In this document: one piece after another, positions 3,828 to 64,000 of the stretch
Position numbering within the stretch: position 1 is the first letter of the stretch
Layout of the letters: each line of letters starts with the position of its first letter
Assembly (NCBI GenBank): GCA_000934665.2
Contig: JYFJ02001929.1
Coordinates: forward strand, 1 to 64,000
Reading direction: 5' to 3'
Source: Catajapyx aquilonaris
Taxonomy: Eukaryota
Length of the DNA: 64,000 nucleotides
Made by a program: the position numbers and the translations under genes
Notes under the pieces: generated by a model
What the model was told of the DNA's origin: nothing
Seen by the model: only the letters and a program-made list of their open reading frames with translations
The model's database searches: none

Positions 3828-6800
3828 GTCCTCGATTTGGGTTTGGCCCCCTTTTTTTCCGACCCATTTGTCACCGCCTTCCCGCATCTTCCTACCCCAT
3901 TTTTCCTGCCTCCCCTTTCTGCTGTCACCTTCGTCTCTCCTCAAAAAATGTCCAGGATGAAATGGCTTTTATGACTGAGCAAGTTGCTAACTCCTGGAAG
4001 TGACATACTTCCTGAACTCACTCGGGGAAGGACCTTTGCTTCAAATATTTTGCTTGAATGTCCATCGAATTTTGTGCCTAATATACCATAGGCGTAACGA
4101 GATTTACGAAGGAAACGAGTGGACCGTAATAGACAAAAGTAGGATGTCAGAAAAATATTGAGTTTTGTGATCGACCGAATTTTTACAAAATTCAGGAAAT
4201 GGTGTTTACACAATTCCTGTGTAGAGGAAGTAAGATTAATATTGTGAAGGGTAGTGGAAGGAACTTTCTCATGGGAACACTGCGGATTACAAAGATGCTG
4301 CTCCTCATCCTAAAACCTGCTCTTTCGCAGCTAGAAGGTACATTTGACACCCGGGCCTTAATCCCCCTTCTCCCTCTAAGACCATCCCAACAGCAAAGCA
4401 TTACATCCGCCAACTATCGATCATTTAGCTCCGTGACAGAAGCCAGATCTTCTCCGCCACCTCCCAGACACACCCTTGTTCGTGTCCTGTTTGGCATGTC
4501 AAATGCACTCTTCTTCTCATCACTTTTTTTTTTTTGGTCCAGAGTTGATGCGTCTCTTAGGACCAAAATTTGTCATCGTTTCGGACTGCGAACGGATATT
4601 GTGTGTCACTCGCAGGAACAGTAAATATTTATTTTATTTTTGCTAATATTAGCACTGTCTTATATTTCACGTTAATACGTACCCAGCAAGGCGTGTCACT
4701 TTTCCTCTTTTATGCAGTGGTCTCCATGCAACAAGGTCTGATTAAAGCGACTTATTCTACTACCACCAGGAACAGCTGCACTGGTGTAATGAACACAGGC
4801 ATTCATTAGCGGCAGGAGTTAATTTGAAAACCGGCCGTTTTCATTATTCCGTGTCCGACAAGGCTTCCTATACCCGGACTGAGAATGGTCCGGAGCCCCC
4901 CGTTTCATTACAAACTGCAATATTAACCTAACCGGATTCGAACAGATAGCAACTCTTAATAGGTGATTGAGTGTGATCGCTTAAAAATCCGGGGGACCCA
5001 AACCCGGAACAATTTTCGCGAAATTTATGTTGGCTGGAAAAAGGGGTGTGGCGCCTGACAGGACAGGGCTATCCTTCCCGGAGATTATAAACTTGCTATA
5101 AAAGCATCAGAGGGGCGTCAGACAAACATTGCACCGGGTGCATAAATCTTAATTTTTTTGTATGAAAATTACTGCTCCCCGGAAACTCGCCTCGTAATTT
5201 TTCCGACAGTGTTGCAACCAGTCACCAGTTCCCATTGTCGCATTCAGTGTGTGTGTGAATCATGTTTTGGACGCAAAAAAAAAACAACGGTCGTTACTTT
5301 TTTTTTACTCGGGTCAACTCTTTGTTTTTACTGGAACAAAGAGTGAAATACACCTTTGTTTGCTTCAGCACGTATATCGTAAACAGTAAAGATTGATGTT
5401 GAAAGAATCCGATCTTGACTGTTTAATTAATGTTACATTGAGGAGTGAATCGAGGGATTAACTTTCACCATGGCAACCTTGTTCAATTTCATGGGAGCAA
5501 TTATTGAAGCTCAGTTTCCATTGTCCTTTTAGCCGTATATCCGGAGCAGTGATGTATGGTTGATACCTGTCCGAAACCCCGGTGTGACACTAATACGTAT
5601 ATCTGGTGATGGAAAGGGGAAGCCTGGCCCATTCTTATTCTCTAGACCCAGTTTGAAGATACGTTTCCTGCATTCAGAATCAGGTAGCTGTCTTGTTTCG
5701 TAATCATAACTAAAGCAGAAAGATGAAACATTCGCAGTCATATAAGCAAAAACCATGTAGCAACAATTGCGATCAAAATATCAGTGGCGTAAAAACAATA
5801 CCATTAATCAGATCTCCGCATATGTCACATGTGTTCAGCTCGAATTTTTTTACTAGCGATGCAAAAACCGCATTTGAGTCGCAAATTCTTTCGCAAAAAA
5901 AATGTGCGGAATTTTGTCCTGTGGCAACAGGCCCCCTTTATTGCGGATTTATTATTATATAAGAAGATCGATAATTTGTATATCGTACGGAATATGTCAA
6001 TAATGGTGCTGAGCTTTGGTGCTGAGAATATGGTGCATAATATCCCAGTGATAAAGTAAGACCCCCTCGCAAATGAGAGTCATTAGCTATGCACAATCAA
6101 CGAAGCCTAACTAATATTTAAAATGGGAGTCATTGTTGCGTTGCGAGTGTGTCGGCATGCAAAGTAGTGGAGGGACCAAACTTTTTTTTTTGGGACAATT
6201 TTTTGACATGAAGCCAACGGATCTTCATACCAAATACCAGGGCGCTTTGGATCTGATATTACGAGTGAAGCCTAGTTATTAAAAGCATCAAGCCGAGGGC
6301 AGGCGTACTTTTACCAAAAACGCAAGGGCTGAATTATGCATGAGGGAGGATCGAACCAGACCAAATTATACAACCCGTTCCTTTACTCACGGGTTTTTTT
6401 AAAAAGCATAGTTGAAACTCGGCCGAGATAATAATTAGTGCGAAAATGAAGCAAGAAAAAGCCTCGATTTATGCCCAATTCTGCATGGACCACACGAGGT
6501 TTCTTTTACAAGCAATATTTGAGCTCGCTTTTTCGTATCCCTGGAGAGAAATGTTACTCCAAGTGCTCTGTATCTCATTTTTGTGAACCACGTTTTCTCT
6601 CGGCTGAAAAACGAGGTGATGGCATCGCTCCCTGTAAGTAATACCCGCGTAGAATAACTGTTGAAAAAGGAGACGACTGCTCATAAATAGTTACGGTTCG
6701 TCCAATCAAAAGAGAGAGCTCGTTTTATGCCCCGAGTTGCATTGCAGGTTTGGGAATATAGAGAAGCTCTCTGCTTATGGGAATGGGCGAATTGGTTACA

Positions 6801-9800
6801 CCCTTATAAGATGCAAATAGGTTAAAGTTGATGAAATCAGAGTGTTCAGAGAGTTTCAGAGCGTAAAAAAAACACAAACTAAATTTACGTCATATTTATT
6901 AGTTACATCACCTTAAATTAATATAAGCTCATGTGCTAAGTTAGCTGCTATAATTGTATCTCGACCTCTCCTTGCCGTTTCCTCGCTCGATAAATTGCGC
7001 TCCTTCCCTTTTGCCTTTTGTAAGCCAAGAAAAATGCTCCTCCACTTTTCACTACAGATTTTCCTCAAGTAAGAAAAAAAAAGTGCAGCCCAAGGAACTA
7101 TAGCTCGGCGGCTTCCGTTTCCTCAGCCATGGCTGAATGCACGGTTATAGTGAAGATGAGTGTCAATGGAGCCAAACTAATGGATTTCTAATGCGGTGCA
7201 ATTTTGGGCGTGGAAGGGCCATTCTCCTTACTGGTTCCAATAGAATAGAAGGAAAGAGAGAGAGGGGGGGATGATCAGTGTGAGGAATATGGGAAGGTCC
7301 TTTTCTCCATATAGCCTGCTGTGATTAATTCTGGTCTTAGAAGCCCAGATTCGGCTCAGGTTGAAACAATTTGTGGCTCTTGTACCAGTCCGCAGTAGGG
7401 GATTTATGTAAGGGATGATGAACGCCACTTGAGGGATTTTCTCGGGGATTCTTCTCGCATTTCTTTGCCTCGGCGTTTGAAGAAGCGCAAACTGTCTTAA
7501 GAGGGATGAAGGCTTAAGGCACTGGGATTAATCACGAGCTAACTGCTCAGAAAAAAAAGAAGAAGTGTGAACAGCCTCTTTTTCAGGTCATGTGGATTAC
7601 CACATCCAAATCTACAAATTGTAAAGGAGCAAAATGCTTTAGATTCGGGTAGGTCAGTGACTATTGTTGGAGTAGGTTGTTTCTGGTCCTCCAGTCGGCG
7701 CCAGTTGGGTCCCCCTTTGAAATCTGGCTTGGAGCCATGAGTTTGGGAGGATTGGAGGAGGAAGCAAGAGTCACACAACCCTCCCCCTTTTGGATCATAC
7801 TGATTTATAAGCCAGCTTTCCATCGGGTAAACGCGCTGCTGGATAGAAAGAGAGGATGACGCCGAATAAATTATTGGACCAATCCTCGCTTCTGATGTGG
7901 ATTGAGCGCTGACTGATCCCGATTCCCATTTTTCCAATTCAGGGATCTGGAGGTGTCAACATTTTTCAGGTGGCAAACTGTGTCAAAACTATTCAAGAAA
8001 TAAAGTATGAACCACCTTGTAGTATAGTGAAGAGTGTTGGACGATTGTCCTTACGTAGACAATATGGATTGCGATTTATAACCCTCCATTTCTGCCCGAG
8101 TTTCTGCTCCTGGCTGCAAAAGGCCAAAGTCGGCTTATTATGGTAATTAAAGGAATCCTGGCTCTCATTTTGATGGGCAAGTATATTAAGACGAGGCCTT
8201 GATGACTCAACTTCCGCCAGCAGTTAATGATTAATCCTCTCGGTTCGGAATATTTGTTGCTCATCTGCCCAAACTTGGAAGGGATTATCATGTCAAGAGC
8301 TTCTGTTGGTTGTATAATAAACGATTATAGAGGTCTGGAAATCTGACCTTTGAATTGTCCCTTCCTGAGAGAAGTGGATTGAGGGACATGCTGATGCGGG
8401 GCAAGTCTGGAGACAAGAAGGTCCATCCGAATTCAGGGGAGGTTCCGGAGGGATTTGCTCTTTACCATCAAGCAGAGGAGAGTTTTGGGGCCAAGATTAG
8501 ATGAAGATCGCGGGAGAGAACCAGCGGTGATGTTCGGAATTAAAGCGCTTTCTAAGCCCCGAATTTGTAGGGAGTTAAGCCCAGGGACACACTACTTTCC
8601 AACAGTTCATTCAAGCCTTTTTTTTGTCAACTTGTAATTTTAAAAAATGCATAGTTTGAATGATTTTGCGCAGGCCTTCATCAGACTTAATAAAGTTTTT
8701 AAGTTCTTAATTAATTGGCAGTTCAAGATAAATCCAGACCAGTTGTCGAGAAGGGAATGGGCGCCTAGGCATCACAGAGTCTGACAGCTCAAGTCGAGTA
8801 CAGTGAGTTTCATTCGGCCTGAGAGGTCATGGAAAGTCAAAAGGTTTTTCGAAACAATCTCGGGTCATTGCTCTACAGTCCACACTATTCCTGCAGAACG
8901 CGTGACTTCCAGAGCAGAACTTCCGAAACTGCGTCTTGTGACATGAGATGTCATGGATAAGGATTCAACTCATGTCACCGAAACTTGTGACAGGAACTAA
9001 AGTTTGACATGACTGTATGATCTGGGGTTCCTTGCACTGCGGTATAATTTTGAGGCTGTAAAGTCCTTTGGTCGGCCTGCTCTATCTGTCTCTCTATACC
9101 ATTTTTGAAGCTTCGTATCTGTGTAATTGTAGAGCTGGGAACCGCAGGGGGCTTTATAGGCGCTTACTTTATGGCACGAGTAAATAAACCGACGCGGTTC
9201 AGTCTCTTTTGTAAATGAGCACCCGAGGAATTCCCACAAGAATTCATTCTCTGTCCAGGCTTTTTTCCCTCGGTACATTGACGCATTTGCCGCATAACAA
9301 CCAGGTAAATATGACTCATACACTCACCTGCCGCCATTATTTTTATTAATGCATTTAGTGTTTTACATGTACATCGTTTAAATAGTGTTGATGGCCTATT
9401 ATGGTCATTGTTTCATGTGGGTACATGCATTCTCAATAAGCGTTGACACTGTACGCGACCAGTAATGACAGAAAGTATTCGGCTTTACACCAATATATTG
9501 CATCAAAAAAATTCCGACAAAAGCACTCTAACAAGGTGAAATTTATATAAAGTGCTGATGGATATATACGTATACATTGTTCAGAATATATTTTTATTTG
9601 CGATATAGCATGTGCTTGTTTCCAAATTACAAGAAGTTTAATCCTTCATCAAACCATCGTTTATCAGTTTTTGATCAAAACCAAAGTCGACCTGAATAGC
9701 GGTTTGCCTGCAATAACCTGGCTGTCAATTTGCATTTTATCGGTCCTTATCCAAAGTAACAAGGGGATTAATCCACAGCGCGGAATTTTTTTTAGAGCGC

Positions 9801-12800
9801 AAAGTTTTCGCAGCCTTAATATCTCGGCCGTGATGAATTTTATAAAAACCCGCGATGAAACGCTCGTCTGACACAACCATTAAAAAAAAGTTTCAATTCC
9901 GGTAATGAACTTGATTGCACTCGTTCATGCAAAGTGTCAGGTCTCATTACTGGATGTAACAGTCAGTCTTACAAAAGTACTACCCACATGCTCGTCAGCT
10001 CAAATCAGGTTGTAATGTTCAAACCATGCTCATATGTGACGTTTTAAATGAACTGTAATTGACTGCACTGAGCTGTATCTTCACTTGAACTAAAATGATA
10101 ATTAGCACAAGTTCATGCCGATCCCGTAAAAGTGTTACTAACCTATCTTGATGACCGGGGGCAGGGCCAGCACAGGGGCGACCCCGAGGCAGAAGAATAG
10201 GGCTATGAGGGCGAGGAGGCCCGCCCCGTGGCCCCTGGGCAACGGCATGGCTCATGATGGTTCCGGACGACACCCCCGTCCGATCCACGTGCCTCTGCCA
10301 AGCAAACCCCAAAAACTCAGAACCCAAATATTTTTAGGCCCACCCCACCCGCCTAAAAACCGCGCCTGTGCCCTGCTCGGACTCAGTCCCACGAATGAGA
10401 CTCCTGGGCCCCCCAAGACCAACTCTGGCTCCACCCTTCCACCCCCCACCGACAGAGTTGCATACCCTTCAAGCACCGGCGCAAATGCCTAACACACCCG
10501 GAGTGTCTCATGTAATGGGAGAACACAACACACCACTTTGCATACATCGATGGGGCTCAAACTTTGGGAGCAAATTTAATCATTTTTATTCCAGGCTTTT
10601 TAAAAGAAACGTTTTGTTGTATAGAAGTGTGTTAGGACTGGTTTCCCCAGGTTGGACCTTTCCTGTTGGAAAAACAAGGCTGTCAAAAATTGGGGGATTG
10701 AATTATGGCAGGGAATTGTTGCGGTGTCGCGCTCTGGCCCGGAAATCCGGTTAATTTTGCCCGTTTGATGAATTTTCATGCAGGGGTGTTTATGGGATTG
10801 GGTACTTCATTTCGGGGAGGTCCGGATGGGAGGCCAAACAATGATGCTGATACTGCAGAAGTACAGATATGCCATGTTAATGTTATACTTAAAAAGGAAG
10901 TAAGGTTTAGGATAGGTTATAGGATAGGTTAGGATAGGTTAGAATAGGTTAGAATAGGTTAGGATAGGTGAGGATACGAAAAGTTAGTTAGTTGAAATTA
11001 GTCTACACCCAAATGTATGGGCTGCATATAAAAAGTACTGTAGATTTTCCTGCTCTTGTGAATTAAATGCAGAGTAGTGAGCAGGACGTTGGGTTAGGTT
11101 AGGAGGATGGAAATACTTCTCTTTTTTTAGCCAAGTATGATGTTTCGTATGCTCCAGTTGCTCTGGAAAATCTGGCCTCCCCCCAACTCCCCTCAACTTT
11201 CTTCTTCTTATGGAGGATCAATAATGATTCGCCTTGATACCACTTCTTTCCCTCTCCCTTTCAACCCCTTTTCCTCTCCATCCCCTTCCCCCACCAACCC
11301 GTCACAAGAAATGTTGGCTCCTTTTCAAACCAACTGCGGAACTAATCCGGCGTAATGCAGCCTCCTTTCTCTTGGCTCAGGCTGTACCTATAGAGTCAAT
11401 GGCATGAACTTAAAGTATCTGCATGAAAAATTATTTTAGATTAAAATGTATTCATGTTGGCAGACCTTGATGTACAGGATTGTGGAACCGAAGCTTCTGG
11501 AGTGTGCGGCTGTGTTACGGTCCGAATATTCCGGATGACCACTGGTATGTGCAGCGTGCGGACGACAACTTTCTGTGGTATCAGTTTCCGTCGCTGGACA
11601 AGTTGGCCTCCTGGGATGAGGGAACATTGTCTGAATTATCGCTGTTCAGTGCAGGAACATTTCCTTAGTAATCCTCCGCATCTTGTGCAGTGGACAAGTG
11701 TCGCGCAGTCTGCAGTGTGTACAATGCATTGGCTTGGATGAAATTCTAAGTGGTTTTCATGATGTGCTGCGAAGCATTAGGATTATCTACTGTGTTTGTA
11801 ATATACTCGTACGTTGCTATTCGAGTTATTTTTCTGTCATAAAATCTGCATGCACGACATGCTGGTTGCTAATTTTTTAAATAGTCGATGTTACAGGATG
11901 AGTGCATAAAAGTACAGTAATTATGTGGCTATAAACGCGCAGTTAATACGAGCCAACAAATGTTTACTAATGGCATTGTTCTGATATGCATCCTCCCTGT
12001 ATTGTTACAATGTGTAGATCGACAACACGGGAATGTAATTTTTGTTGTTGAAAGCATATGCCCGAAGCAGATAAAAAAAAACATGTTGCATCAGATCTTT
12101 CAAAAAAAAAAATACGTGATAGGAACCTTATTAATGACACAATTGGCCTTTTTGTTGAGGTCAACCGCGCTATCACAAAGCCCCCTGTAAAAACGAACAA
12201 TAAAATGATGATCGTTTTTTAGAGGCCTCACTCCACGAATGCAAAACACAACCTCTGCCACTGGGAAGCCATCGAACCGAGAAATCGAGCAAACAAAAAC
12301 TGGACCCACAAATTGCCACTTTTTGACTGATAAAAAGGTCAATCACATCACAAACGGAGATATTATGAGCATTATTTTCATCTACAGACGTATAAGTTAT
12401 TAAAATAATTACGATTTGAATCTAAAGAGAATGTATTTTTCAGGCTTTAAGGTCTGTTGAATAAGAAGCCAACTCGAGTAGGACTAGAGAAAGTGAGCGT
12501 CTGACTCCGGAATGTCCGGTATGCTCATATCCGGAGTCCATCTATAGTTCAGCTCGAACTGAATAATATTGCAGGAGGGTTGAAGCTCCATCACCCCCAC
12601 AGTTCAATGCCTGCCTCTGCAGAATATGTTTTTTTCCCCCTGAGCATGATGGATGATTGGCTCTTTTAAACTGACGAATATTTACACTTAGGCAGCACTG
12701 GTTAAGAGACTGGAATTAATAGACTGCACTTTTTTGTGATGCCTGGGGATAAAAAGAGGGGGGTGATTAGCTTCCTAGACTTGATAAACCCTGACGGAAA

Positions 12801-15800
12801 TTGGTGTGTGCTGGTGGCAAAGACGAGTCGCTCTGAGCTTATAATGAATATTAGTTGACATCAGCTTGCCGGTGATGCACAGAGAGAGAGAGACAGAGAG
12901 GCTCTGAAAGTACCAAATTGATCCTTTGATCTAGCAGCAGTGCATTTTTCAATAGGGTTTACCATACACACACAAAAAGAGGGGGTCTTTTAATTTCAAG
13001 GCGTAACATATGGTCATGGTATTGTAAAGGAGCATTATTCAATAATTGGCAGTTTATAAAAAGGACCGGATCTTACTATAATTTTAAGTTAGGTTGTTCC
13101 TAACGGTATTAAATGGTACGACCCGTAGACGTCCATTGTTGTGAAACCTGCAAATTCTTTTGAAAAATGGTTATGGATATTATTAATAATTTTCCTGCAA
13201 TATTAGGGTCAAGTGCTGAACATGGAAAGAGCAATATCCTGTACGTTATTTAGCCACGAACCATCCCCCAGAAGCATCTCATTGTCTGAACCTGAATGAA
13301 AAGCCAGTTTTAGCAGAAAACCCTTGTGAACCCACAAGCACAAGGACGATGCCCTCCCAAAAGATTTAATTACTCGACTATGGCGATATAATTGGCCAGC
13401 CAGATTTCGCACACTTGAGTCTTCCAAACCTTGGGCTCAATTGGACCCTTGTTCAGATCCGTGCTGGTGACATTTTATTTCTTCCATTGTCACTTAAGAG
13501 CACAGCTGTTCCGTTGATGTACAGTGCAGTGTACAAGCTGAAAAAGCAGGGTGTTTCATAAAGATTGGAGAAACTTCTACAGTGACCTTCCTGGCCTTGC
13601 AGACTTCATGTAGAAGTACGATCATCACTATTAATACTGATGTTCTTGTTAGATTTCACTGGATCACAACTGTTGCCTTGGATACCCGAAATGCGATCCG
13701 AAAATGTGTTTCATCCAGTAGAAGCCACACGTATTCCTCACACCTAAAAAGGGGCAACGATGAGATATCTCCTGCGGGGCTTTTGATTGGGTCCAACCCA
13801 ACCTCTGGATAATACCATGCCCCATATATTTCAGTCCCTGAACTGAAGAGGCGACGTCCGCTAATTAGTCTCACTCGCTTCAGAGTCGAGCAGCCAAAAC
13901 CATTCAACCTCCCAAAACCCCCCCTCGGAATGAAATCACTCGCCCTGCCATTATTGCATTGTTGCCTCGGCTCTTCAAAAGGATTAGTCTTCAGATATTT
14001 CTCACTCCAAGAGACACACGGTCCAGTGTTAATATTGCTGAGTTCTCCGGTCAACACCAGGCTGTTGCTGGGTCGTAATTAAAAGATGGCCGTTTGCCTG
14101 TCTCCTTCAGTCGTCCTTTATATTATTCCCACGCCCATTGGCCCATATACACCAGCAGCAGGCCCAATCCCATTAATTGGGAGGAATCGATGCCCTTGGG
14201 ATTGGAACCAAGGTTGAAGTGCAACAGTCATTAGCACGGATAGAACCTGTCCATTCTTCTGATTATTGGGCGAGGCAGCCTTTTGGCAAGTCCATTAAGT
14301 CCTTACAGGGTGATTCAATTTGTGAGCACATTTTACAAATTGGCACGAAAACAATTTCTATCATACAGATTTTTTTTGGTGAAAAATATACGAATGCCAG
14401 TAGTTATAAGGAATCTGGCCCATAAAGCAAACGGGCCCTGATTTCCAATTCACGATGCCCTCAGGAAATGTGGTCATAGTCTGGAAAGGTGCTGGTGTAG
14501 AAAAATTTGGCAACGCGATCAGAGGAGATTAATCTTCAGTTTGAATTATCATCTCCGCAAAAGGCAGCAGCAATTTGGCAATATCCGGGAGAGCAACGAA
14601 GCAATTGATCATCAATATATTTTTTTGCCCCCTTTTTTAAACCACAGCAATAACCAAGTGAGAATTTGCATGGCTCCGGAATGTCTACAACCGCAGTGGC
14701 ATCCTTTGACCATTTTGCAATTTTATGGACGTGTTATTTTTACATTTTGGATGTTGGTTTTTTTTGGAGGATAAATTATCGCTGAAATGGCCAGGACGGT
14801 TACAAATAGCAAACGTAGTATTAATCTTCCCCTATTATCGGTTTAGTGTTAGCGTTTTTTTGAATTCTGACAAAACGATCGCGGTTGGAACGAGTTAATC
14901 CGCAAAGAGCAGGCTTATAAAATAACATTTTGATAAGTGCAAGAGGTCATAAAATTTGACCACGCTTTTGTTATAGGAACGCAGAATAATCCACATACAG
15001 CTGGTAATCTATTCAGGCCAGCATTTGCAAATTAGGCTAAGTGCGATTCAATTTTCCAGATCATTCTGGCCACCTGAATCGGCTCTTTTTTCACATATAA
15101 ATGCGTTTTAAATCGCTGCAGTTGGAATGGGACACATCAGAAAATGAATATTGCACACAAATTAATCGTACAATGGATAATCCCTAGTTCAGATTGAGCT
15201 GCCACATTCAGGTAATTATATGCACTAAGTTTAGTCAATTTTTTTCTATAGAAGCAATATCCGACTCTCTGCAAGTTATTCAAACATAGGAAAGGACAAC
15301 AGAATGAAGATAAAAATAAAAGCATTTTCTTGTGGGACAAGATCAAAGCTTGCCTTTATTTGATTTTCCCGCGCCTCTTCTTATTGGGCTTGGAAATAAC
15401 ACTTTTGCTCATTTGGACCCTGCAGAAGCTGGATTATGGAGAGTGATTGGGTTGGATTGTTGAAGGGACCAGGGTTGTCTTCTTGTGCAAATGGGGAGGG
15501 ATAGAAGCAGACCTTTTTGTTCAATAAAAATGGTGAGACTGTTATCCTGCGGCCAGCCAGCCCCGGACTCTGATTGAGTGTCGGAAATATGACATCAGAA
15601 GCATGAAAGGTCCACTGGACACATTAAATTTCAAGTAGGGATTGGGGTGTAGAGGGGTGGGTTAAGTGGATCGCTCTCTTTCACACCCATTTCCACTGGG
15701 TATTGATTTCACCTTAGGGAACGATTGGCTATACCATGCTTTTTTTTCTCGGGAGGCCCCGATGGAAAGAGAGAGGTCATCGAAATGATAACGTTAAGGT

Positions 15801-49356: not shown

Positions 49357-49547
49357 TGGTGATCCAGATGGATTGAACCACATTGCAGCTGAGAAAAGCC
49401 AAAGCCTTAAAGTCTGTGATATAACCACCAACCAAAAAGAAACCATTGAAACGGCGAATGCTGCTCACTCATCGCTATCTTTTTAAAAACTTTTCTATTG
49501 TAAGCCCACTTGCATACACTTGTGGGACCGTGACATGTCAGTGTTTT

Positions 49548-49553
49548 AATAAA
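49548..49553 (+). terminator. Candidate polyadenylation signal of the receptor gene
   Basis: AATAAA ~190 nt after the stop, followed by T/GT-rich sequence. Confidence 0.5.
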
Positions 49554-50111: not shown

Positions 50112-50268
50112 TACAGGGTAGCTTAAATTCCAACGAGACAGGTAAAGTTCTCAAAGAGATTACACTGTCTTAATCTACACATATTTATCAATTTCTCTTA
50201 TATATGAAAAATTATTTTAAATATCAAAATTAAAGTGGGGCCAAAGTTTCTTGCTGAACCACCCTGTA
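50112..50268. mobile_element. Short Tc1/mariner-type MITE-like remnant
   Basis: TACAGGGTAGCTTA ... TGAACCACCCTGTA imperfect terminal inverted repeats with TA at both ends; AT-rich interior. Confidence 0.45.
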
Positions 50269-50289
50269 CAAAATTGCTTCAATTGGATG

Positions 50290-53200: not shown

Positions 53201-56200
53201 CTCAGAAGCTCAAAATTTACGACATCTCCTGAATCGTCAACCGCGAGGTGACGAATTACATGAGCTCGTAATTAAGCCATAAAATGGGATATAGAAGGGA
53301 GTGGCATAGAACAGACCAGTGTAGGCCCCAGAAGTTCATTATCGGCATTGCCATGAAATATACAGGTCCGTAAATTATATTAAGGCTCGCAGTGTACATT
53401 ACGGTTTCAAAAAAAAATTGTATAAATCAGAGGGCTATCGATTACGTTGCTGTATAAAGCTTCGAACGTGTGGATTTCACGTTCATTTTTCAGCAGCCCC
53501 GTCATTGAAAAATTATCGCTTCACACGTAAATCCATTCCCCCTTCACATAATCACCTTCACAATGCCATTAGAAGAGGCGACATTGCCTTTTATAGCCCA
53601 AGCGGCAAAATGATAAACATGTTAAGTTTGGAGCGATTAAAACCCTAAAATGAAGCTTCTACTTCTACAGAAAAAAATAGTCTTGTTTACCTCACGCAAC
53701 TCAGGATTTTACCACACTGTTTCACGCCTTGTCCATTAGAGAAACTTTACGACCGCTTTTCGTCCGGGTGTTTAATAACTTTGTACCTGCTGTTATAGCA
53801 TGGAAATGGTACGTCACGCTGCAATTAAAAAGCGTTTAGTGGCTGGCTGGGATCTCCTCGCTTCAGCTACCAACCGGCTTAATTTCCTCACCGACAACCA
53901 GCCAGATGAAGCCATTTACACTTCCTAGAACCAGCTTCCGAGAGCATTTTGGTAAGGTTAAGAAGGCCAGGTTTATTAAGAGGTCTCCACACGCACTCTT
54001 ACGTCAGAAATTAATTACGATCCGATTGCAATTTATCCAGTAAGTACTGCTGTCAACAACTTGCTTCACCTCCATTATAAAGAGGAAAAAACATTTGTGA
54101 TAATGCGTTTGGCGCCTTTACAAAAACAAGGATGATGAGTTCTCTTCTATAGTGATCCGAGAAAACAAAAATTGCAAAAGTTTCTCACAAAATGAAGCAA
54201 AAGGGATTAGCTTTTCACGTAAATGTTATAAAAACGATCGATGCTTTAATTAAAGCCCTAGGAGCAACTTTTTCCCCTCCCATTCCCAAATTATTCAAGA
54301 GCAATTTCAAGCCAAGCTCCAATCGTTGCTGGAAAAGGTGGCAAAGGCAAAAAAAACGGTTTACTAACTTGGCTTAAACAACATGTTAACATTGATAATT
54401 TTATCAGTTAGTATTACCGTTAGTATTATAATTTCAATGACTTTATTTCCATTGGACTTGCCAAAAAAGTAGCCAATATCGTTCCCTAAGGTGAAATCAA
54501 TACCCAGTGGAAATGGGTGTGGAAGAGAGCGATCCACTTAACCCACCCTTCTACACCCCAATCCCTGCTTGAAATTTAATGTGTCCAGTGGACTTGGACC
54601 TTTCATCTCTTCCCCCATGCTTCTGATGTCATTTTTCGGACACTCAATCGGAGTCAGGGGCTGTCTGGCCGCAGGATAACAGTCTCAACAATTTTTATTG
54701 AACAAAAGGTCTCCTTTCATCCTCCCCATTTGCACAAGAAGACAACCCGGGCCCCTTCAACAATCCAACCCAATCACTCTCCATAATCCAGCTGGGGGTC
54801 CAAATCAGCAAAAGTGTTATTTCCAAGCCCTAGAAGCTGGGGGAGAGGAAGAAGCGCGGTAAAATCAAATAAAAGGCAAGCTTTGATCTTGTCCCACAGA
54901 AAAAGAGAAGGCTTTTTCACTCTTCATTCTGTATATCTAGCTGTGTGATCCTATGTTTGTGAGTCACGTGCTGAGAGTCAGATATTGCTTCTGAAATAGA
55001 GGCTGTTGAGGCAAAGCTGAACTTATGGCACACCTTGTATATCACGTAGCAGCGATTGGTAGAAAATAAATCCTTGCTAATGGAAACTGCCAGCAACCTT
55101 GGTCCCAATCCCAAGGGCATCGATTCCCCCAATTAATGGGATTGGGCTTGGTGTATATATGGGCCAATGGGCGTGGGAATAATATTATAGGAAACAGACT
55201 GAAGGAGACAGACAAACGGCCATCTTTTAATTACAACCCAGATTATTAATATCGGGTGAGCAACAAAGGTGTTTTCAGCTACAAAGTAACCAAAGTAAGT
55301 TGATGGAATGTTGATCTTTCCCTTTAACGCAACAACCAGATCTAAGAGGGGATGATCAAAGAGACCTCAAAAGCGAAAACATAATTAGTTTCAGATGAAA
55401 TTCCAATTTGTGGTGTGCCTTAGAAAAGCCAGGATTATCCTTCAGTCCTACCTGCACCTCCTATTATTCATTCAGTCCACATTTTTTTTCGCCAAGCAAG
55501 AAAATCTATCCACCGAAAACAAGAGCGATTTGTTCGGCAATCCCTTTTCCATCAAAGCCCTAACCGTACACCCAAATTGTTATTTTATCCCCTTCGAACA
55601 TCGTTGTATGTTGTGCGTGTGTGTACACATTGGGAGAAAACTCCCCAAAGGCTGATGCTCACCCACTATGAACCGGAGCATTATTCATGCAATGATCCTC
55701 TTTGTACTGTCCATATTTGATTGTGTGTTGTTTGTCTTTGTTTGAATAACTGATGCGGTCTGTTTCTCCCTTCGGGTTACACCCGAATTCTGTCGACTGT
55801 GTGTCCAGTATGGGGCAAACAGCGCATTATTGCATTTTATTCTCAATTTTGGACCATGTTTAAAATATCTTTCATGTCCTTCTCTCCAAGTGTTTGTATA
55901 CTTGTACAATGCAGTGGGTTTCTGAGTGACAATGAACAGAATAAAGTGTCACCAGCACCAGTTAGAGAAGGTGGTGGACGGAACAAGGTGGTAATTGACC
56001 CGTCAGTGGACTCAACATATCTGACCGCGACCAATTAACACCGCCATAATTAAATCTCAGTAATGTCTGGCATGTCTAGAGATTTTTTTGTGGATATGTC
56101 GCCTCAAAAAAATGAAGGCTCTTTCTCTCGCTTTAGAAAAAAAAGCGTGAATATATCTCCTGAAAAGCGAAGCAGGCAGCATGAAGGAGATGATGTCAAT

Positions 56201-59200
56201 TACAACCCATTATAAGCTGAGAGAGACCCGTCTTTGCCACGAACACTCGCCAATTTCCGACGAAGGTTTATCAAGGCTCTGACGCTAATGACTTTTTTTT
56301 TCTCTCGCTCGCTCGTCGCAAGAAATCCGTTGCGTCAACTGTGCAAGAAGTCTGTTGATTAGCTCTCGCTTCCGCCTTGGAACTTGATCTGCCTTGTTCA
56401 GAATCACATGCTTTACATTCGTATAAAAACTGTTCTAATTATTCACATTTTTTCCTTGCCTACCCTTACCATACCTTACTTAACCTTCCCTAACCTAATC
56501 TGACCTAACCTAACCTAACCTAACCTAACCTGACGTAACCCTAACCTTTGAACCTAACCACAGGAAAATTATTAACTAGATTTTAGTAGCCTACAGTACT
56601 TGGATCAAATAAGTGCAGACATCTAATGCTGTATTTCTTACTTGAAAATATTTCTGCATTCATGTAGATCACGTACAGGCAAAGGAGGAATGGCGCATTG
56701 AGGTGTTATGTGGCGGTTGATGAAGCCTGGTTCTACCTCGTGCAATATTATTCAGTTGGAGGCTCCGGAATCTCCCTCGGATATGAGCATACCCGGAATT
56801 CCAGAGTGAGACACGACAACTTTCTCACCCCCCACCCTTATACTTGCAGGGACCTTTCCCAGGGGTCTCTTTTTCGCCAAAAATATATTCTCATACTCTG
56901 GAGGGGAAGTCCAAGGTGAAGGCAATATAAATACAACCCACCCCTAGAGGCCTCTGGAATATGAGGCTGCTGTGGTCTGACCTTACCCTTGTTTAGGAGA
57001 TGTTTAAAGCCGGACAAGATTGTGATTAAATCCAGTATTTTTCCTACACGAAGCGAGCAACATCGATCATGCAAATGAGGTTTAATGTGAAGCGGATATA
57101 ACGGATTTCGCTTATGGAATATTAAGCCATGTAATTTTCACTCGAATAATTTTCTCTATACTACTAGGGAAAAGTGCATTGACTAAAGAAAAATGACAGA
57201 AGCTCTAGTTTGAAATGTTGATCAGTTTTTGATCGATAGTTGTTGCGAGGCTGATAATGTCGAGTGGTGAGAGCATTGCACTCAACCAGAGCACGCGAGA
57301 GACCTCAAAACAATCATATTGTTCGCTCTCGCAGGGCTTTATAAATGAGCGGTTGACCGCAACAAAAGAGCATTTGTGTCATTATTAAGCTTTTCCTATA
57401 GCCAACTGCGATATAGAGGACTGAAATCAGCTCTATCAGATGTGGTCGCATGGCTTTTCATAATAATCCGCAATTTTTGATGGCCTCGAAACATTGACGA
57501 AAATTCCGGGACTGTGCGTTGAAACAATGGAAAAAATTAACTCCACTTCCAGATAACATGCGTTATCGCATCAATGTGACCATTTCGCTGGACCTTAATT
57601 GCCGTGCAGAACATTATGCAATGGTTGCGGCTAATTGCTGATGCAAGAAAATGTGGGAATAATCGCAATTAATCATAACAAATGTATAGTTTCGCACCGA
57701 TTGTGTGTTACATTTCAGTTGCTGATTTCTCCTCATTAAATTAATGATTGGAGAGGCTCAATATTTTTTTATTGCGTGAAATAGCATATTAACACCACAA
57801 TAATTAATTCAAATATTAATTTCTTCACTTTCTCTGCTCATCTTTAGAGTCTCACGTGCCATTGACTCTCGCTTGCCATTTGCAAGGTACAGCCTGAGCC
57901 AAGAGAAAAGGAGGCTGCATTACGCCGGATTAGTTCCGCAGTTGGTTTGAAAAGGAGCCAACATTTCTTGTGACGGGTTGGTGGGGGAAGGGGATGGAGA
58001 GGAAAAGGGGTTGAAAGGGAGAGGGAAAGAAGTGGTATCAAGGCGAATCATTATTGATCCTCCATAAGAAGAAGAAAGTTGAGGGGAGTTGGGGGGAGGC
58101 CAGATTTTCCAGAGCAACTGGAGCATGCGAAACATCCTTCTCTTTTTTTCTGACTCACTAAAAATGTGCAGAGTCCATGTCGCATATTGTATAATGGGCA
58201 TGTAATTCAAGGAAGATCGTAAATTATTGTGACAGTTTAGTAACAGTACTGTTGTAATATGTCGTTAAAAAATGTGTTTAAAGCTGGCTTTGAAGGGTAT
58301 GCAACTCTGTGTGGAAAGGGTGGAGCCTGGTGATGGGGGGCCCGGAGTCTCATTCGTGGGACTGAATCCGGGCAGGGCACAGGCGCAGGTTTTAGGCGGA
58401 AGGGTAGGAGGTGGATGGGGTGGGCCTAAAAATATTAGGCCCTTTACTGGTCTGGGTTTCGGTTCGCCTGGCAGAGGCACGTGGGACGGATAGGAACCAT
58501 GAGCCATGCCGTTGCCCAGGGGCCACGGGGCGGGCCTCCTCGCCCTCACAGCCCTATTCTTCTGCCTCGGGGCCGCCCCTGTGCTGGCCCTGCCACCGGT
58601 CATCAAGATAGGTCAGTAAATGGCTTCTGTGCATTAATTTTGGGGTTAGCATATTAATAGCAATATTAACATATTTTTAAACCATACACGCAATAAAGCC
58701 ATCCCACATTAAGAGCAATGAATATGCCAAATGAATTATTGGATTCCAATTTAATCCACTTATTGATCATAGATTGGCACAGTCCAAAATGACAGTTGGT
58801 CACTGCAAATAATTATGCTAGTTATCCACAAGAGCATTTTGTTTCATTACATCTTATTAGTGTGGTTTGGAATGGAACGTAATTACTTAATTACTTCGCG
58901 TATGCCACAAATGTGAGTGACTCTTCAGCAAATTTCGATGACCGGATAGGAATCACAGCCATTTACAGCTGTTGCGATTATTGACAATGATTCCGTCAGT
59001 TTAGTACTTAAAAAACTAGATGTAATTTGTCTCACTTTTCGGCATATAAAAGCCTCTCCCGGCAACTGCAATGTCCAAGGCAATAAAGGCATGTGACAGT
59101 CTATGACCGGATATTTACCTTTCTGGCTGCGAGGTTTGATTAGGAAACCAGATGCGATACTGGGGGACCAAAAAGGCCGGAAAGAGTAATTCCGGACAGA

Positions 59201-62200
59201 GAATGAATTCTTGTGGGAATTCCTCGGGTGCTCATTTACAAAAGAGACTGAACCGCGTCGGTTTATTTACTCGTGCCATAAAGCAAGCGCTTATAAAGCC
59301 CCCCCCCCTGCGGTTCCCAGCTCTACAATTACACAGATAGGAAGCTTAAAAATGGTTCAGAGAGGCCGATAGAGCCAGACTTTACAGCCCTAAAATTATA
59401 CTGGGACCAGTGTCGGCAACAACACTTACTTCCGACTCACTACGCAATCTAATGGATTGTTCGAATCGTTTTTGAAACATCCTGTAGCTTTGTAGCAGCA
59501 TTTATTGAGCGTACGACCTGCCTCTCTGAGCAGACAGAATGATCATTACGCACTTGGTCATTTCCATAAGCAAACCATCCTCGGTGGGCATCACTCTTGA
59601 AACAAAATGTCAGTCCTACTCTCAGCTTGCAAAATCTCGAATTTGCATACAGAGCCTGGATGCGAATTCCGATTTTATACGATCAGTAGGGGTTTTTTTT
59701 GGGGGGGGGGGGGGTGGAAAGTACGAGGAGGCCACAAATCCTGGTCGTGACCGTTTATGCCGAGTCCTTCTCGTAACATTATTCAGGCTTTCAAAAATAC
59801 ATAGAGTGGTGGAAAAAATGAAGAGAAAAAAGAGAGAGAAAAAATGAAAGGAAGAGAGAACCGCCATTTTCACTTAAGAGTGACCCTGACATCACCAGTC
59901 AATACCTCTTTTTCTCTCTCTCTGAACTAGGTCTGACTGCTCTTTTCAGATTTGAAGAAGACAAAAAAAAAATGGAGGCAAGAGAGAGACAGGCCTACCT
60001 TTTGTGCTAGTCCATCAGACGGAAACTTGGGGCTATTCTCAGGCACGAACAGGACCTGGGAACATAAGATTTGTCTTAGTTTCTTCCACACGAAAAATCA
60101 CTGACTTATAGACTTTGGTCACGTCACATTCCTTTGCTATAATAAATTGTGTAAAGCAAAGAACTACTGTCCGCATCAAACCAAAAATGCTTGGATTTCA
60201 GCTTATTAATGACATGGAAAGAAGCTACTAATTGTAGAGAAGTTGGTTTGAATGAACTGTTGGAAAGTCGTATGTCCCTGGGCTTAGCTCCCTCCAAATT
60301 CGGGGCTTAGAAGGCGCTTTAATTCCGAACATCACCGCTGGTTCTCTCCCGCGATCTTCATCTAATCTTGGCCCCAAAACTCTCCTCTGCTTGATGTTAA
60401 AGAGCAAATCCCTCCGGAACCTCCCCTGAATTCGGATGGACCTTCTTGCCCTGTCCCTCAACCCACTTCTCTCAGGAAGGGACAATTCAAAGGTCAGATT
60501 TCCAGACCTCTGTAATCGTTTATTATACAACGAACAGAAGCTCCTGACATGATAATCCCTTCCAAGTTTGGGCAGATGAGCAACAAATATTCCGAACCGA
60601 GCGGATTAATCATTAACTGCTGGCGGAAGTTGAGTCATCAAGGCCCTCGTCTTAATATACTTGCCCATCAAAATGAGAGCCAGGATTCCTTTAATTACCA
60701 TAATAAGCCGACTTTGCAGCCAGGAGCAGAAATGGAGGGTTATAAATCGCAAGGACAATTATTGTCTGCAGGGTATTTCATACTTATTCCTCGAAACGCT
60801 TTGATACACCCTGTAGGCACCCCCCAAAAATGTCTGCACCTCCCAATCCATCAGTTAGAAAAATGGAATCGGGATCAATCAGCGTTCAATCCACATCAGA
60901 AACGAGGATGGGTCCAATAATTTATTCGGCGTCATCCTCTCTTTCTATCCAGGAGAGCGTTTACCCGATGGAAAGCTGTCTTTATAAATCAGTGTGATCC
61001 AAAAGAGAAGGTTGTGTGACTGGTCCTCCTCTTGCTTCCTCCACATTCATGGCTCCAAGCCAGATTTCGAAGGGGGACCCAACTGGCGCCGACTGGAGTA
61101 CCAGAAACAACCTACTCCAACAATAGTCACTGACCTACCCGAATCTAAAGCATTTTGCTCCTTTACAATTTGTAGATTTGGATGTGGTAATCCACATGTC
61201 CTGAAAAAGAGGCTGTTCACACTTCTTTTTTTTCTGAGCAGTTAGCTCGTCATTAATCCCAGTGCCTTAAGCCTTCATCCCTCTTAAGACAGTTTGCGCT
61301 CCTTCAAACGGCGAGGCAAAGAAATGCGAGAAGAATCCCCGAGAAAATCCCTCAAGTGGCGTGCATCATCCCTTACATAAATCCCCCACTGCAGACTGGT
61401 GCAAGTGAGAGCCACAAATGGTTTCAAATCTAAGATCAAAATTAATCACAAGCTATAGAGAATTGACTCTTTTTTTCACTTCCAATTATTTAAAATGTAT
61501 CCTGTGTGTAAAGTAACAAAGTTTTCACCATGACAATACTCAGCTAGTGCTCCTAATTCTATATTAAAATTTGCATATATTATGGACGTCAAAATGTTTC
61601 CCATTACTATAAGCTGAGTTCTTCTCTATTCCCCAACCTACAATGCAAGTTAGAAGCATAAAACGAGCCCTCTTTTGATTGGACGAGTCTTCTTATTTTT
61701 CAGCCCTTATTCTACGCGGGTATGCCTTACAATGAATGATGCCATCACCTCGTTTTGCACCAAGTGTAAATTGTTCCAGGAGAAAACGTGGTTCAAATAT
61801 CATCCAGAAATGAGATACACAAGCTCAGGCAGTACATTTTCCTCCAGGGATATACGCCGTTTTCTAAGTCTCAGAAAAAAAAAACTAGCTCAAATATTGC
61901 CCGTTTCGTCCATGCAGAATTGGGCATAAATCGAGGCTTCCCTTGCTTCATTTTCGCACTAATTATTATCTGGCGAGTTTCAACTATGCTAAAAACTGGG
62001 AGGAAGGGAATGGGTTGTATAATTGGGTGGAAAAAAGAGAGGAAGTTGTTCGATAATCCCTCAGGCATTATTCAGCCTTGCAATTTGTAAAAGTACGCCG
62101 CCTGCTTATTTTAATGACGAGATTTCAGCTTAAATTAGCTGGTTTCTTCAGAAAGTCAGATTATTATTTCTTAAACGTAAAAAAAGTTGGTTCCTATACT

Positions 62201-64000
62201 TTTATGTGCATTCATAACGCGACACTCAATATGTGGCTTTAAGATCCGCATGCAAATGGCGTTCATTGTTGCGAAGGGTTGTTCCAGCCAAGCATTTATC
62301 ACGTAGCATTACGCACTCATTATAATTAATTCCTTGCTTAAAGCACGTCACCCTGACTTAATGACTTGTCATGCAGGACTCCATCATGTATACGATTCAT
62401 TATTGCGCATCGTGAAGTGACTTCTATTCGGACAGGCAGCATTGTGCCATGGTTACCATTCAAAATCTCAAATTAATCCCTCGTTTAACTGAAATCAATG
62501 TACCTTTTTGGCGACTGGCTTAATTAAACGGTCAAGATCGGATCGCACATTATTTTTTGAGTCGGACCTTGATCGACAACCACGACTGGTTTCAATTAGG
62601 TCGTCTAATGCGTTAGGTGCCAAACCCCCTGATATCTGGAGGGGCTCGTTAACTCGTGATTAATGAGCCCCAAGCGTATGCACCTTTCCCATCCATCAAA
62701 CTCATCCCTGTGACTCAAGTGTCGAGCAATCCTGCCCTAGGTGGTTTCAGGATTGAAAATCAAATATTGCCTAGTCTCAGCTTCCAGTCTCCAAATGTTT
62801 GTTCCCAGTTTTTTTAAAAAAAAAAAGTTGACCCGAGCAAATGTAACGACTTTTTTTTTTGTCCAGACCATGATTCACACACACTGCGACAATGGGAACT
62901 GGTGACAGGTTTGGAGGGGGGGGGGGGGGAAAAAGGTCGCAAAAATTACGATGGGGGAATTTCGGGGGGAGTAATTTTCAAAAAAATTAAGATTTATGCA
63001 CCCGGTGCTGTTGTTTGTCTGATGCTTTTATGGCAAGTTTATAGTCTCCGGGAAGGATAGCCCTGTCCTGTCAGACGCCTTCCAGCCAACATAAATTATG
63101 GAAAATGTTCCAGGCCTGAACCCCATATCACTTTCCAGCACCTATGAAGAGTTAATAATCTGCACTTTTGATAATTGCAATTCGCAGCTCGAACTTATTG
63201 TCGGACACGAAATAATAAAAACGGCGGGGATTTGTAGGAATTAACTCTGCCCGCTAATGAATGCCTGTGTTAATTACACCCGTGCGGCTGTTCCTGGGCA
63301 GCGGAATAGTCGGACTTAATCAGAGGTTCTGAATAGGACCACTCCATAAAATGTACAGTGCTGTGGAAACCTGAAGATTAAAAAATATATACAGTTTGAA
63401 TATGCGGATTGGACAAGAAACCAGGTTTCATTCGGATGTGAAGTGCGTCATATTCCATCAGGATGAATTTTGAGCTATTGAAACAAATATTTACCGTTCC
63501 TGCAAGTGACAGGCGGCCCCCACACAATATCACTTCCATGTAGTCCGAAACGATGACAAATTTTGGTCCTAAGAGACGCATCAGTTCTGGCAAAAAAAGT
63601 GATGAGAAGAAGGGTGCATTTGACATGCCAAACAAGACACGAACAAGTGTGTCTGGAAGGTGGCGGGGAAGATCTGGCTTCTGTCACGTAGCTAAATGAT
63701 CAATAGTTGGCTGATGTAATGCGTTGCTGCTTAGACAGAGAAGGATGTCAAATGTACCTCTTGTTCCTGCTGAAATTTCAGGACAGTCAAATTCAAAGAA
63801 GTTCAGGGATAATACGTCACATCCAGAAGCTTGAAAAGAAACGCAACTTTGCTCAGTCATAAACGCCATGTCATTTTTCAGACCTTTTTTTTTTTTGGCA
63901 CTGGAGTCCGTGAGGTGACAGAAAAATGGGGTAGGAAGATGCGGGAAGGCGGTGACAAATGGGTGGAAAGGACCGCTCGACCCCAACCCAGATCGAGGAC
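50290..64000. repeat. Right arm of the inverted duplication (truncated by the window end)
   Basis: Same block pairs as the left arm in strict mirror order. The ORF track independently shows duplicated peptides on opposite strands (e.g. 11137+ vs 57920-, 8455+ vs 60228-, 10148+ vs 58265-, 8076- vs 60549+). Confidence 0.95.
56480..56559 (-). repeat. Interstitial (TTAGG)n / (CCTAA)n degenerate array
   Basis: cctaacctaacctaacctaacctaacc core with degenerate flanks; TTAGG is the canonical arthropod telomere repeat. Confidence 0.85.

Follow-up and report, generated by a model that had tools for sequence, protein, structure and literature searches.

A probable cluster of three kainate-type glutamate receptor genes, two of them inverted duplicates, in Catajapyx aquilonaris

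Why should a receptor gene lie between two long arrays of mostly non-coding sequence that mirror each other block by block? This question is raised by the stretch of 64,000 nucleotides analyzed here, hereafter called the window, in which all coordinates are positions. The preliminary description of this DNA had regarded the arrays as enhancers of two paralogous developmental genes. The results of our analysis point instead to what is probably a cluster of three kainate-type iGluR genes, in which two inverted duplicates, the left paralogue or L and the right paralogue or R, flank a central gene, C.

The mirror arrangement itself is real. In a blastn self-comparison of the window, the left arm (3828-21429) and the right arm (64000-50308) are joined by 17 inverted matches whose order is strictly mirrored, with E-values as low as 1e-124 and 0.0, and the same comparison finds no direct repeats. 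These colinear matches, far above chance, confirm the roughly 20 mirror-order blocks reported previously and support the inverted duplication proposed for them; a repeat search returned 29 inverted pairs, and among the best 25 of these 24 join arm to arm. The right-arm match extends to base 64000, as had been claimed, and the arms continue past the window. Aligned sequence accounts for 4988 of the 17602 nt of the left arm (28%) and 4903 of the 13693 nt of the right arm (36%), with identical bases at 4229 of 4651 aligned sites (90.9%). Identity per block ranges from 77.5 to 99.6% and is heterogeneous (chi-square 158, 16 df, p = 2e-25), the lowest values being found in the shortest islands, and the low overall percentages of the blastn matches are mostly due to indels. 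The G+C content is 0.46 in the blocks versus 0.40 in the spacers. The latter had been described as unequal in length and unalignable. Their lengths are indeed unequal, for example 1008 nt at 14242-15249 versus 77 nt at 54993-55069, and are correlated between left and right (Spearman 0.58, p = 0.018); 11 of the 16 score like shuffles, as expected of unalignable sequence, whereas the other five retain small extra homology (z >= 5). All 16 contain non-homologous DNA on both sides, the smaller side measuring 38-2500 nt.

The arms had also been considered devoid of coding exons, but each of them contains one: the block at 10135-10472, paired with 58619-58290, holds one intact first coding exon of 106 nt per arm. 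In L, which is transcribed leftwards, exon 1 lies at 10143-10248 on the minus strand; it starts with ATG, encodes a 35-codon signal peptide ending in ALPPVIKI and closes within a split Gly codon (phase 1) at the donor G/GTTAGT. Exon 1 of R, which is transcribed rightwards, lies at 58506-58611 on the plus strand and has the same structure with the donor G/GTCAGT, differing from that of L by 3 nt (T/I, A/V and one silent). By tblastn, the N-termini of arthropod homologues match 10215-10141 on the minus strand, 58539-58613 on the plus strand and 24844-24948 in exon 1 of C, with alignments that end at the same final residue in L, R and C, at the boundary of exon 1; exon 1 of C (24817-24946) has an ending like that of L and R and an identical phase. 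An HMM profile of this N-terminus, built from 46 distinct homologues and compared with 2800 ORFs from all six frames, places C first (E = 0.0024), L third and R fourth, the scores of L and R being weak (E = 0.22 and 0.29) and the second rank being occupied by an unrelated ORF at 51454-51540 (E = 0.11). The full motif ALPPVI[RK][IV]-G closes exon 1 in 35 of the 46 homologue N-termini, while three more are cut at the slice edge; its form with residue K, as in L and R, is confined to the six members that bear the motif in the subgroup whose M1-M2 scores are lower, and the motif of C fits the subgroup of homologues with residue R. The assignment of exon 1 draws on several features together, namely the motif, the conservation, the donor site and the reading frame, and, as far as this exon shows, L and R would begin with the first exons of kainate-type glutamate receptor paralogues, not of the developmental genes that had been supposed. 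The ORF of exon 1 (35 aa) has no extension that does not meet a stop, and in both arms the start codon is preceded, 7 nt upstream, by an out-of-frame ATG.

Since exon 1 is found in both arms, these appear to be the 5' parts of two receptor paralogues. Besides exon 1, the left arm (minus strand) would comprise intron 1 of L (3828-10142) and its promoter and upstream region (10249-21429), and the right arm (plus strand) the upstream region and promoter of R (50308-58505) and its intron 1 (58612-64000 and beyond). A tblastn search up to E = 10 detected no iGluR exon beyond exon 1 in either arm, so that the remaining exons of L and R would sit outside the window; both are presumably complete genes. 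The earlier proposal of two paralogous, oppositely oriented genes, each with its copy of the array of non-coding blocks, is upheld in this respect, except that part of each gene falls within the window, with its promoter and first exon inside the arm (10.1-10.5 kb in L and 58.3-58.6 kb in R).

Gene C (24817-49508, plus strand), delineated by tblastn of seven arthropod homologues, fills most of the 28.9-kb spacer between the arms. After exon 1, its further coding exons extend from 30895 to about 49341 and its transcript to at least 49508, with GT..AG joints at 48483/48539 and 49203/49287 recovered from an RNA-like run, X5. The exons match the Pfam families ANF_receptor (E = 1e-12), Lig_chan-Glu_bd (E = 1.5e-23) and Lig_chan (E = 1e-21), and the best PDB matches are GluK2 and GluK3; C is a kainate-type receptor with amino-terminal, ligand-binding S1/S2 and channel domains. 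Each of the 120 relatives listed is either named as an arthropod glutamate/kainate receptor or, if unnamed, carries the same Pfam set. Per-exon scoring of these 120 homologues, which is distorted by long HSPs, gives only about 65% identity to the better-aligned full-length ones, and no close relative is present among those scored. The Pfam domains, the tblastn matches and the ending of exon 1 place C in the same family as L and R, of which it is an older member rather than a bystander, as previously thought.

Conservation between the arms around exon 1 runs from about 230 nt upstream of the ATG to 8 nt past the donor. Within the exon, one of the 23 four-fold sites differs between L and R, whereas the next 200 nt of intron 1 give an alignment score of -14 versus -17.6 +/- 6.3 for shuffles. 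The four-fold data have a probability of 0.003 under 30% neutral divergence and fit a divergence of 5-20% (P = 0.68 to 0.04). Such a contrast between silent sites and intron is not accounted for by selection on the protein following an ancient duplication. With 1 of 23 silent sites differing, the two exons must either have shared their sequence recently, by young duplication or conversion, or be constrained at the nucleotide level, and the idea that the duplication is ancient and that only constrained sequence survived is not established.

Apart from the block with exon 1, most blocks look non-coding: mismatches show no preferred codon phase, the lengths of indels do not follow multiples of three and translated arm-to-arm matches appear in every frame of both strands, as for non-coding DNA. 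Hidden coding sequence in the other blocks is ruled out by the flat mismatch phase and the all-frame matches. None of the 181 ORFs of at least 60 aa in the arms and the initial 3.8 kb of the window (119 in 1-21393 and 62 in 49255-63998) belongs to a Pfam family, in line with the reported lack of transposase in the arms. Searches for RNA genes found no tRNA and no Rfam match, either at the gathering score or at E up to 1. Immediately upstream of exon 1 of R lies a promoter-proximal/5'UTR block (58290-58505, plus strand; left partner 10249-10472 in the arm alignment), in which the conserved CTAAAAATATT, some 80 nt before the ATG, and a CACGTG may represent a TATA-like element and an E-box, respectively. 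The most conserved block, at 11139-11389 (minus strand; partner 57885-58136), has sharp edges and is located about 0.9 kb upstream of the start codons of L and R, with 250 of 251 aligned sites identical and one 1-nt indel; it gives no signal of RNA structure (z = 0.18 and -1.03 versus shuffles), and a 24-mer taken from it had no match in a metagenome scan. A structured RNA, miRNA, snoRNA or tRNA reading is rejected on the absence of Rfam and tRNA matches and of any folding signal. The largest cluster of blocks, at 7361-8617 (minus strand) in intron 1 of L with its partner at 60245-61427 in intron 1 of R, is identical at 1104 of 1172 ungapped sites (94.2%), with a non-coding mismatch phase of 23/21/24. 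The innermost blocks (21126-21429, partner 50308-50665) are 96-97% identical at ungapped sites and adjoin the central gene. Most of the high-identity islands are candidate cis-regulatory sequences that both copies may have kept. As the comparison covers the two arms of one species, constraint on the islands is something that we infer, and conversion or young age is possible too, because conservation is as high at the silent sites of exon 1 as in the islands.

Our preferred explanation, which we consider probable, would account for these features as follows. C (24.8-49.5 kb, plus strand) would have on either side the 5' portion of another paralogue, L on the minus strand and R on the plus strand, these two pointing away from each other and being far more alike than either is to C. 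L and R would derive from an inverted duplication with inner ends at 21429 and 50308. Upstream DNA would account for about 8-11 kb of each arm and intron 1 for at least 5-10 kb; between them would lie the promoter-proximal block and exon 1 with its signal peptide, the other exons following beyond the window. The mirror blocks would then be the still-alignable remainder of the duplication, comprising the first exon, the region of the promoter and non-coding islands both upstream and within the intron. Gene conversion between the arms, limited to islands with persisting homology, has probably occurred and would add to their near-identity. The identity pattern may reflect constraint on regulatory blocks, conversion between the arms, rapid turnover of indels or some mixture of these.

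The duplication could also be younger and its pattern owed to fast indel turnover, with a neutral divergence of about 10-20%, constraint restricted to the blocks of 93-99.6% identity, the low-identity blocks being neutral remnants and the spacers the leftovers of overlapping deletions and insertions. The four-fold sites of exon 1, which fit 5-20% divergence, are consistent with this, as are the overall identity of 90.9% with lowest blocks at 77-82% and the blastn percentages lowered largely by indels. Yet the spacers are non-homologous on both sides and correlated in length, unlike simple one-sided indels, and no transposon structures were found; we consider this explanation unlikely, though far from negligible. 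A somewhat smaller likelihood is assigned to a decaying palindrome maintained by conversion, in which the islands have no function except for exon 1 and remain similar enough to convert while the rest has drifted. It would explain the near-identity of exon 1 silent sites (1/23) beside an unalignable intron, the sharp edges of the island with 250 of 251 identical sites and the least identity in the shortest islands. The G+C excess of the blocks (0.46 versus 0.40), which GC-biased conversion predicts, is equally expected of regulatory DNA. Moreover, conversion has poor substrates in the islands of 80-130 nt with 77-82% identity, which nonetheless persist in order, and the edge of one island is a splice donor while another island spans the promoter-proximal region, a situation that fits functional boundaries.

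There is a slender chance that the innermost blocks (21126-21429 and 50308-50665) are boundary elements that pair with each other and loop out C and, jointly, that the arms form a two-copy cis-regulatory footprint of an arthropod kainate-receptor gene, its islands kept alignable by selection and then homogenized by conversion, with C insulated from the regulatory domains of L and R. Very improbable is the original proposition that the arms are enhancer arrays of two developmental paralogues outside the window and the receptor an unrelated bystander. Colinear non-coding islands with unalignable spacers, the absence of Pfam domains in the arms and the extension of the arms past the window are all compatible with it, but each arm contains a promoter-proximal block and an outward receptor-type exon 1, which makes receptor genes starting inside the arms the nearest paralogous transcription units, and C comes from the same family.

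Read depth bears on the integrity of the assembly. The locus is contained in four DNA runs, all of one sample and of one organism only, and in no RNA run among those listed; the depth data concern the right arm, and the sample may be the source of the assembly. Word depth in the unique contigs of the right arm was 19-24 versus 20.6-24.7 for C in run X1, 28-35.5 versus 30-36.8 in run X2 and 25-28.5 versus 30.6-38.8 in run X3. The right arm has the same depth as C, contrary to a half-depth haplotig, so a haplotype mis-join is unlikely; and the summed contig depth of the right-arm blocks, which does not exceed about 1.7 times the single-copy level, is not that of high-copy repeats. Paralogue contigs over the exons of C sum to about two further copies. 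The RNA-like run gave six contigs on 44001-64000, which cover receptor exons; on the right arm it left only scraps below 30 nt with long loose ends, which are uninformative on the expression of R. An assembly artefact, in the form of an alternative haplotype or a chimeric join in inverted orientation, is hardly credible, for although the assembly is single and the four runs from one sample may be its source, the depth of the right arm is not half that of C, its unique contigs contain no other letters, contig 48603-50554 bridges the 3' end of C into the right arm across the inner right junction, and the unalignable spacers and two amino-acid changes exceed the low heterozygosity of the sample. 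A foldback or long-TIR transposon is likewise rejected, given the lack of Pfam hits, the block depth and the absence of terminal structures (no TIR, LTR or target-site-like repeats were found).

Inverted, head-to-head segmental duplicates are common within receptor gene-family clusters, and the arrangement of L and R is an ordinary kind of gene-family duplication. As in such clusters, near-identical first exons with their flanks stand opposed with a further family member between them, and the homology is colinear and free of transposase; in contrast with them, only the 5' parts are visible here and the non-coding similarity forms about 20 separate islands rather than one continuous stretch. 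Palindromes of sex chromosomes have arms that are near-identical over their full length. Our locus resembles them in its inverted arms around a unique gene-bearing spacer and in its near-identical tracts, including the silent sites of exon 1, but whole-arm near-identity is absent, 28-36% of the arms being alignable at identities of 77.5-99.6%, and a palindrome of this type is rejected. Homogenization by arm-to-arm gene conversion is the process associated with large palindromes around a unique spacer (PMC3403216). In vertebrates, duplicated conserved non-coding elements (dCNEs) are found beside paralogous genes (PMC2781166 and PMC1896008). They are defined by cross-species conservation and usually lie near developmental regulators after whole-genome duplication. 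The present islands are similarly kept near both gene copies in conserved order, whereas they accompany neurotransmitter receptors, derive from a local inverted duplication and are compared within one species only. Genomic regulatory blocks with bystander genes (PMC3514665 and PMC2688929, among others) also have arrays of conserved non-coding islands that span tens of kilobases around genes; here, however, no developmental target gene is evident and the enclosed gene is paralogous to the flanking ones. The main text of PMC3514665 contains no occurrence of kainate or glutamate receptors. In the literature listings searched, no account of arthropod receptor genes surrounded by paralogous non-coding arrays came up, and for arthropod kainate-receptor clusters there were only family surveys.

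If our preferred reading of a three-gene cluster is correct, a striking mirror array that appeared to be 'non-coding' would consist of the inverted 5' ends of two receptor genes, which corrects a tempting over-reading of such arrays. The comparison of L with R points, without recourse to a second species, to parts of an arthropod kainate-receptor gene that may be regulatory, namely the promoter-proximal block, the near-identical upstream element of 250 nt and the intronic cluster of 1.2 kb. With almost identical silent sites lying beside an unalignable intron, the locus would also offer a compact case for studying how selection, conversion and indel turnover act in young inverted duplicates.

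When the window is compared with itself by blastn, 3828-21429 pairs with 64000-50308 in 17 matches, all inverted and strictly in mirror order, and direct repeats are absent; the mirror array reported in the preliminary description is therefore real. The outermost match indeed reaches base 64000, and the partner of 1-3827 would therefore lie beyond the window. A repeat search returned 29 pairs in inverted orientation; of the 25 listed, 24 join one arm to the other. The best matches, with gaps counted, pair 11139-11389 with 58136-57885 (252 nt, 99.2% identity) and 7361-8617 with 61427-60245 (1268 nt, 87%). On ungapped columns only, 4229 of the 4651 aligned sites of all blocks are identical (90.9%), and identity varies block by block from 77.5% to 99.6% (heterogeneity chi-square 158, 16 df, p = 2e-25). 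In the left arm 28% of the sequence lies in matches, in the right arm 36%. Local alignment of each spacer against shuffles detected extra small homology (z of 5 or more) in 5 of the 16 spacers and none in the other 11; spacer lengths are unequal between the arms yet correlated (Spearman 0.58, p = 0.018). The composition of the window is unremarkable, with G+C of 38-48% per 2-kb bin and no N anywhere. Microsatellites of TAGGA/TTAGGATAGG and ACCTA units, at 10907-10976 (plus strand) and 56473-56547, are mirrored between the arms in strand sense, while their positions are not colinear; they resemble TTAGG, the arthropod telomere unit.

The spacer between the arms holds a kainate-type ionotropic glutamate receptor gene, hereafter abbreviated as C. 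Translations of two window ORFs match kainate receptors in PDB, and a database search with the exon encoding the M1-M2 pore segment retrieved 1031 proteins with E no higher than 1e-10; all 120 that were listed are kainate-type receptors of arthropods (insects and crustaceans), and none has the same sequence as the query. The coding exons mapped by tblastn with seven homologues (plus strand) span 30895 to about 49341 and carry the Pfam domains ANF_receptor, Lig_chan-Glu_bd and Lig_chan; the gene is therefore inside the 28.9-kb spacer, as the preliminary description had it. Two adjacent exons, 46647-46904 and 47053-47337 (plus strand), each encode the same M1-M2 segment. Their lengths, 258 and 285 nt, are multiples of three, AG and GT flank each of them, and Lig_chan profile positions 2-64 are matched by both. 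The two exons may be either mutually exclusive or included together; 47051-47257 is covered by an RNA-like contig. All 12 homologues examined have a second M1-M2-like stretch immediately next to the first, so the deposited models contain both units. Two such units are at odds with the usual topology of these receptors, and the part of the literature surveyed held nothing specific on them. An intron of C also contains a 70-nt inverted repeat (43324-43393 and 43499-43568, 97% complementary, arms 105 nt apart), which resembles a small element of the foldback or MITE type and is the one repeat of the window without a relation to the mirror arms.

To find the missing first exon of the central receptor, the N-termini of homologues were run against the window. 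They match 24844-24948 (plus strand), exon 1 of C itself, and also 10215-10141 (minus strand) and 58539-58613 (plus strand), both inside the block 10135-10472/58619-58290; all alignments at the three sites end at the same residue. The predicted exon in the right arm (58506-58611, plus strand) has its ATG at 58506, a 35-codon signal peptide running to ALPPVIKI, a split Gly codon and the donor G|GTCAGT. Its counterpart in the left arm (10248-10143, minus strand) has the same structure with the donor G|GTTAGT, and exon 1 of C (ATG at 24817, end at 24946, plus strand) has the same phase. Of 46 distinct homologue N-termini, 35 have exon 1 ending in an ALPPVIKI-type motif and three more are cut at the slice edge; among these sequences the motif is a signature of the clade. 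Its Lys form, present in both arms, occurs only in the six motif-bearing proteins of a subgroup with lower M1-M2 scores, and the motif of C agrees with the Arg subgroup. When a profile of the 46 N-termini was searched against all 2800 six-frame ORFs of the window, exon 1 of C took the first rank (E = 0.0024); ranks three and four went to the arm exons, whose E values of 0.22 and 0.29 are weak by score alone. The second rank (E = 0.11) fell to a short ORF of the right arm, VIRIEHLESNVGT (51454-51540, plus strand), which is taken as chance because it has neither a left-arm partner nor splice context. Motif, start codon, signal-peptide character, phase, donor and local conservation coincide in the arm exons, which are thus probably receptor first exons.

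No later receptor exons were found in either arm, even at E = 10, which implies that the remaining exons of the two outward-pointing paralogues, L (left, minus strand) and R (right, plus strand), lie outside the window if they exist, with a first intron of more than 10.1 kb in L and more than 5.4 kb in R. Relative to the arm exons, blocks 3828-9256/64000-59194 correspond to intron 1 and blocks 10249-21429/58505-50308 to the promoter and upstream region. L, transcribed leftward, and R, rightward, would form a head-to-head pair with the older paralogue C in between; the left arm stops 3.4 kb upstream of the C start codon, and the right arm begins about 0.8 kb past 49508, where the transcript of C is last seen. 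The paralogous genes are therefore probably receptor genes with predicted first exons within the arms, and not, as previously proposed, developmental genes wholly outside the window flanking arms devoid of coding exons, nor is the enclosed receptor, their paralogue, a bystander.

The earlier view that the blocks are non-coding is confirmed for most of them, with the exon 1 block as the exception. Mismatches do not follow codon phase (23/21/24 in the largest block), nor do indels come in multiples of three. Translation of 620 left-arm ORFs against the right arm gave 162 matches within nucleotide blocks, in all frames and on both strands, and added only one colinear match (17615-17677 with 53524-53586) and one non-colinear. 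Pfam had no match in the arms and the initial 3.8 kb of the window (181 ORFs, each at least 60 aa long), and only two, both below curated cut-offs, in 57 ORFs located at 22-30.7 kb. The array has no features of a transposon or known RNA: the arms lack TIR- or LTR-like local repeats, no tRNAs were found, Rfam gave 0 matches, whether at gathering score or with E allowed up to 1, and on neither strand does the best block fold better than shuffles.

Conservation between L and R reaches about 230 nt upstream of the ATG and ends 8 nt past the donor, the next 200 nt of intron aligning no better than shuffles. Within exon 1 only 3 of 105 coding sites differ (two replacements and one silent), including 1 of 23 four-fold sites, a count with P = 0.04 if neutral divergence were 20%, 0.003 if it were 30% and 3e-6 if it were 50%. 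We favor selection on the islands together with arm-to-arm conversion: functional islands would stay alignable through selection, and conversion, halted at the end of homology, would homogenise them. Conversion alone, acting on non-coding islands without function, remains an alternative, and the silent sites of exon 1, a sharp-edged island with 250/251 identical sites and the higher G+C of blocks than of spacers (0.46 vs 0.40) suit it; in favor of island function, edges fall at the splice donor and promoter region, short islands of 77-82% persist in order, and every spacer holds sequence in both arms with correlated lengths. The same silent sites, sharp-edged island and G+C excess would also fit a younger duplication with neutral divergence of about 10-20%, which also remains, heavy indel turnover having erased the spacers. 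The original proposal was right about an inverted duplication, but an ancient one kept only by protein-level or regulatory constraint does not explain near-identical silent sites adjoining unalignable intron.

Other features lie near the start codons. A TATA-like CTAAAAATATT, a candidate by its letters only, occurs about 80 nt upstream of the ATG within the conserved stretch. A conserved out-of-frame ATG (58499-58501, and 10255-10253 on the minus strand) precedes the start codon of exon 1 by 7 nt in each arm; its frame overlaps the signal-peptide codons and could add nucleotide-level constraint on silent sites. CACGTG is present at about 58480 (plus) and about 10285 (minus), just upstream of the start in R and L, and at 24821-24826 (plus), within the first codons of C; the three hexamers may represent a regulatory site in common or a coincidence.

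Four DNA runs from one sample, which may be the assembly source, contain 96-98% of the sampled words. Depth was evaluated from run contigs placed on 44001-64000, thus for the right arm only and not independently of the assembly. Word depth of unique contigs in the right arm and in C was 19.2-24.1 and 20.6-24.7 in run X1, 28-35.5 and 30-36.8 in X2, and 25.3-28.5 and 30.6-38.8 in X3, with no other letters except one in a single X3 piece. This parity, with a contig (48603-50554) spanning from the 3' end of C into the right arm, argues against a mis-joined half-depth haplotype, and summed depth over right-arm blocks, at most about 1.7 times single-copy, argues against high-copy repeats. Left-arm contigs cross-match right-arm blocks at 90-99%, with skips that are the spacer differences. 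Over conserved C exons lie paralogue contigs with a few letters unlike the window: two at 45835-45880 have single-copy depth, and one at 48077-48098 has about double depth (53.5 vs about 22 in X1, 75.3 vs about 33 in X2, 61.3 vs about 29 in X3); two further closely related exon copies therefore seem present, a hint of two more C-like copies in the genome, which could be unseen parts of L and R. At 44624-44643 and 62809-62912, many contigs stop, and their loose ends differ from one another (agreement about 0.4-0.75, with 2-8 per entry in each run), which suggests short elements that recur at other places in the genome.

The locus is organized like an ordinary inverted segmental duplication in a receptor gene cluster; as the enclosed gene is paralogous to those flanking it, the genomic-regulatory-block or bystander model is unnecessary. 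Conversion-maintained palindromes are defined by near-identity along whole arms, a feature absent here. As far as the sources available in part describe them, duplicated conserved non-coding elements of vertebrates are like the present islands, which are defined by arm-versus-arm comparison, but differ in that the genes here are not developmental regulators. The locus thus adds one more case to a known kind of structure, with a set of candidate regulatory islands as a useful by-product.
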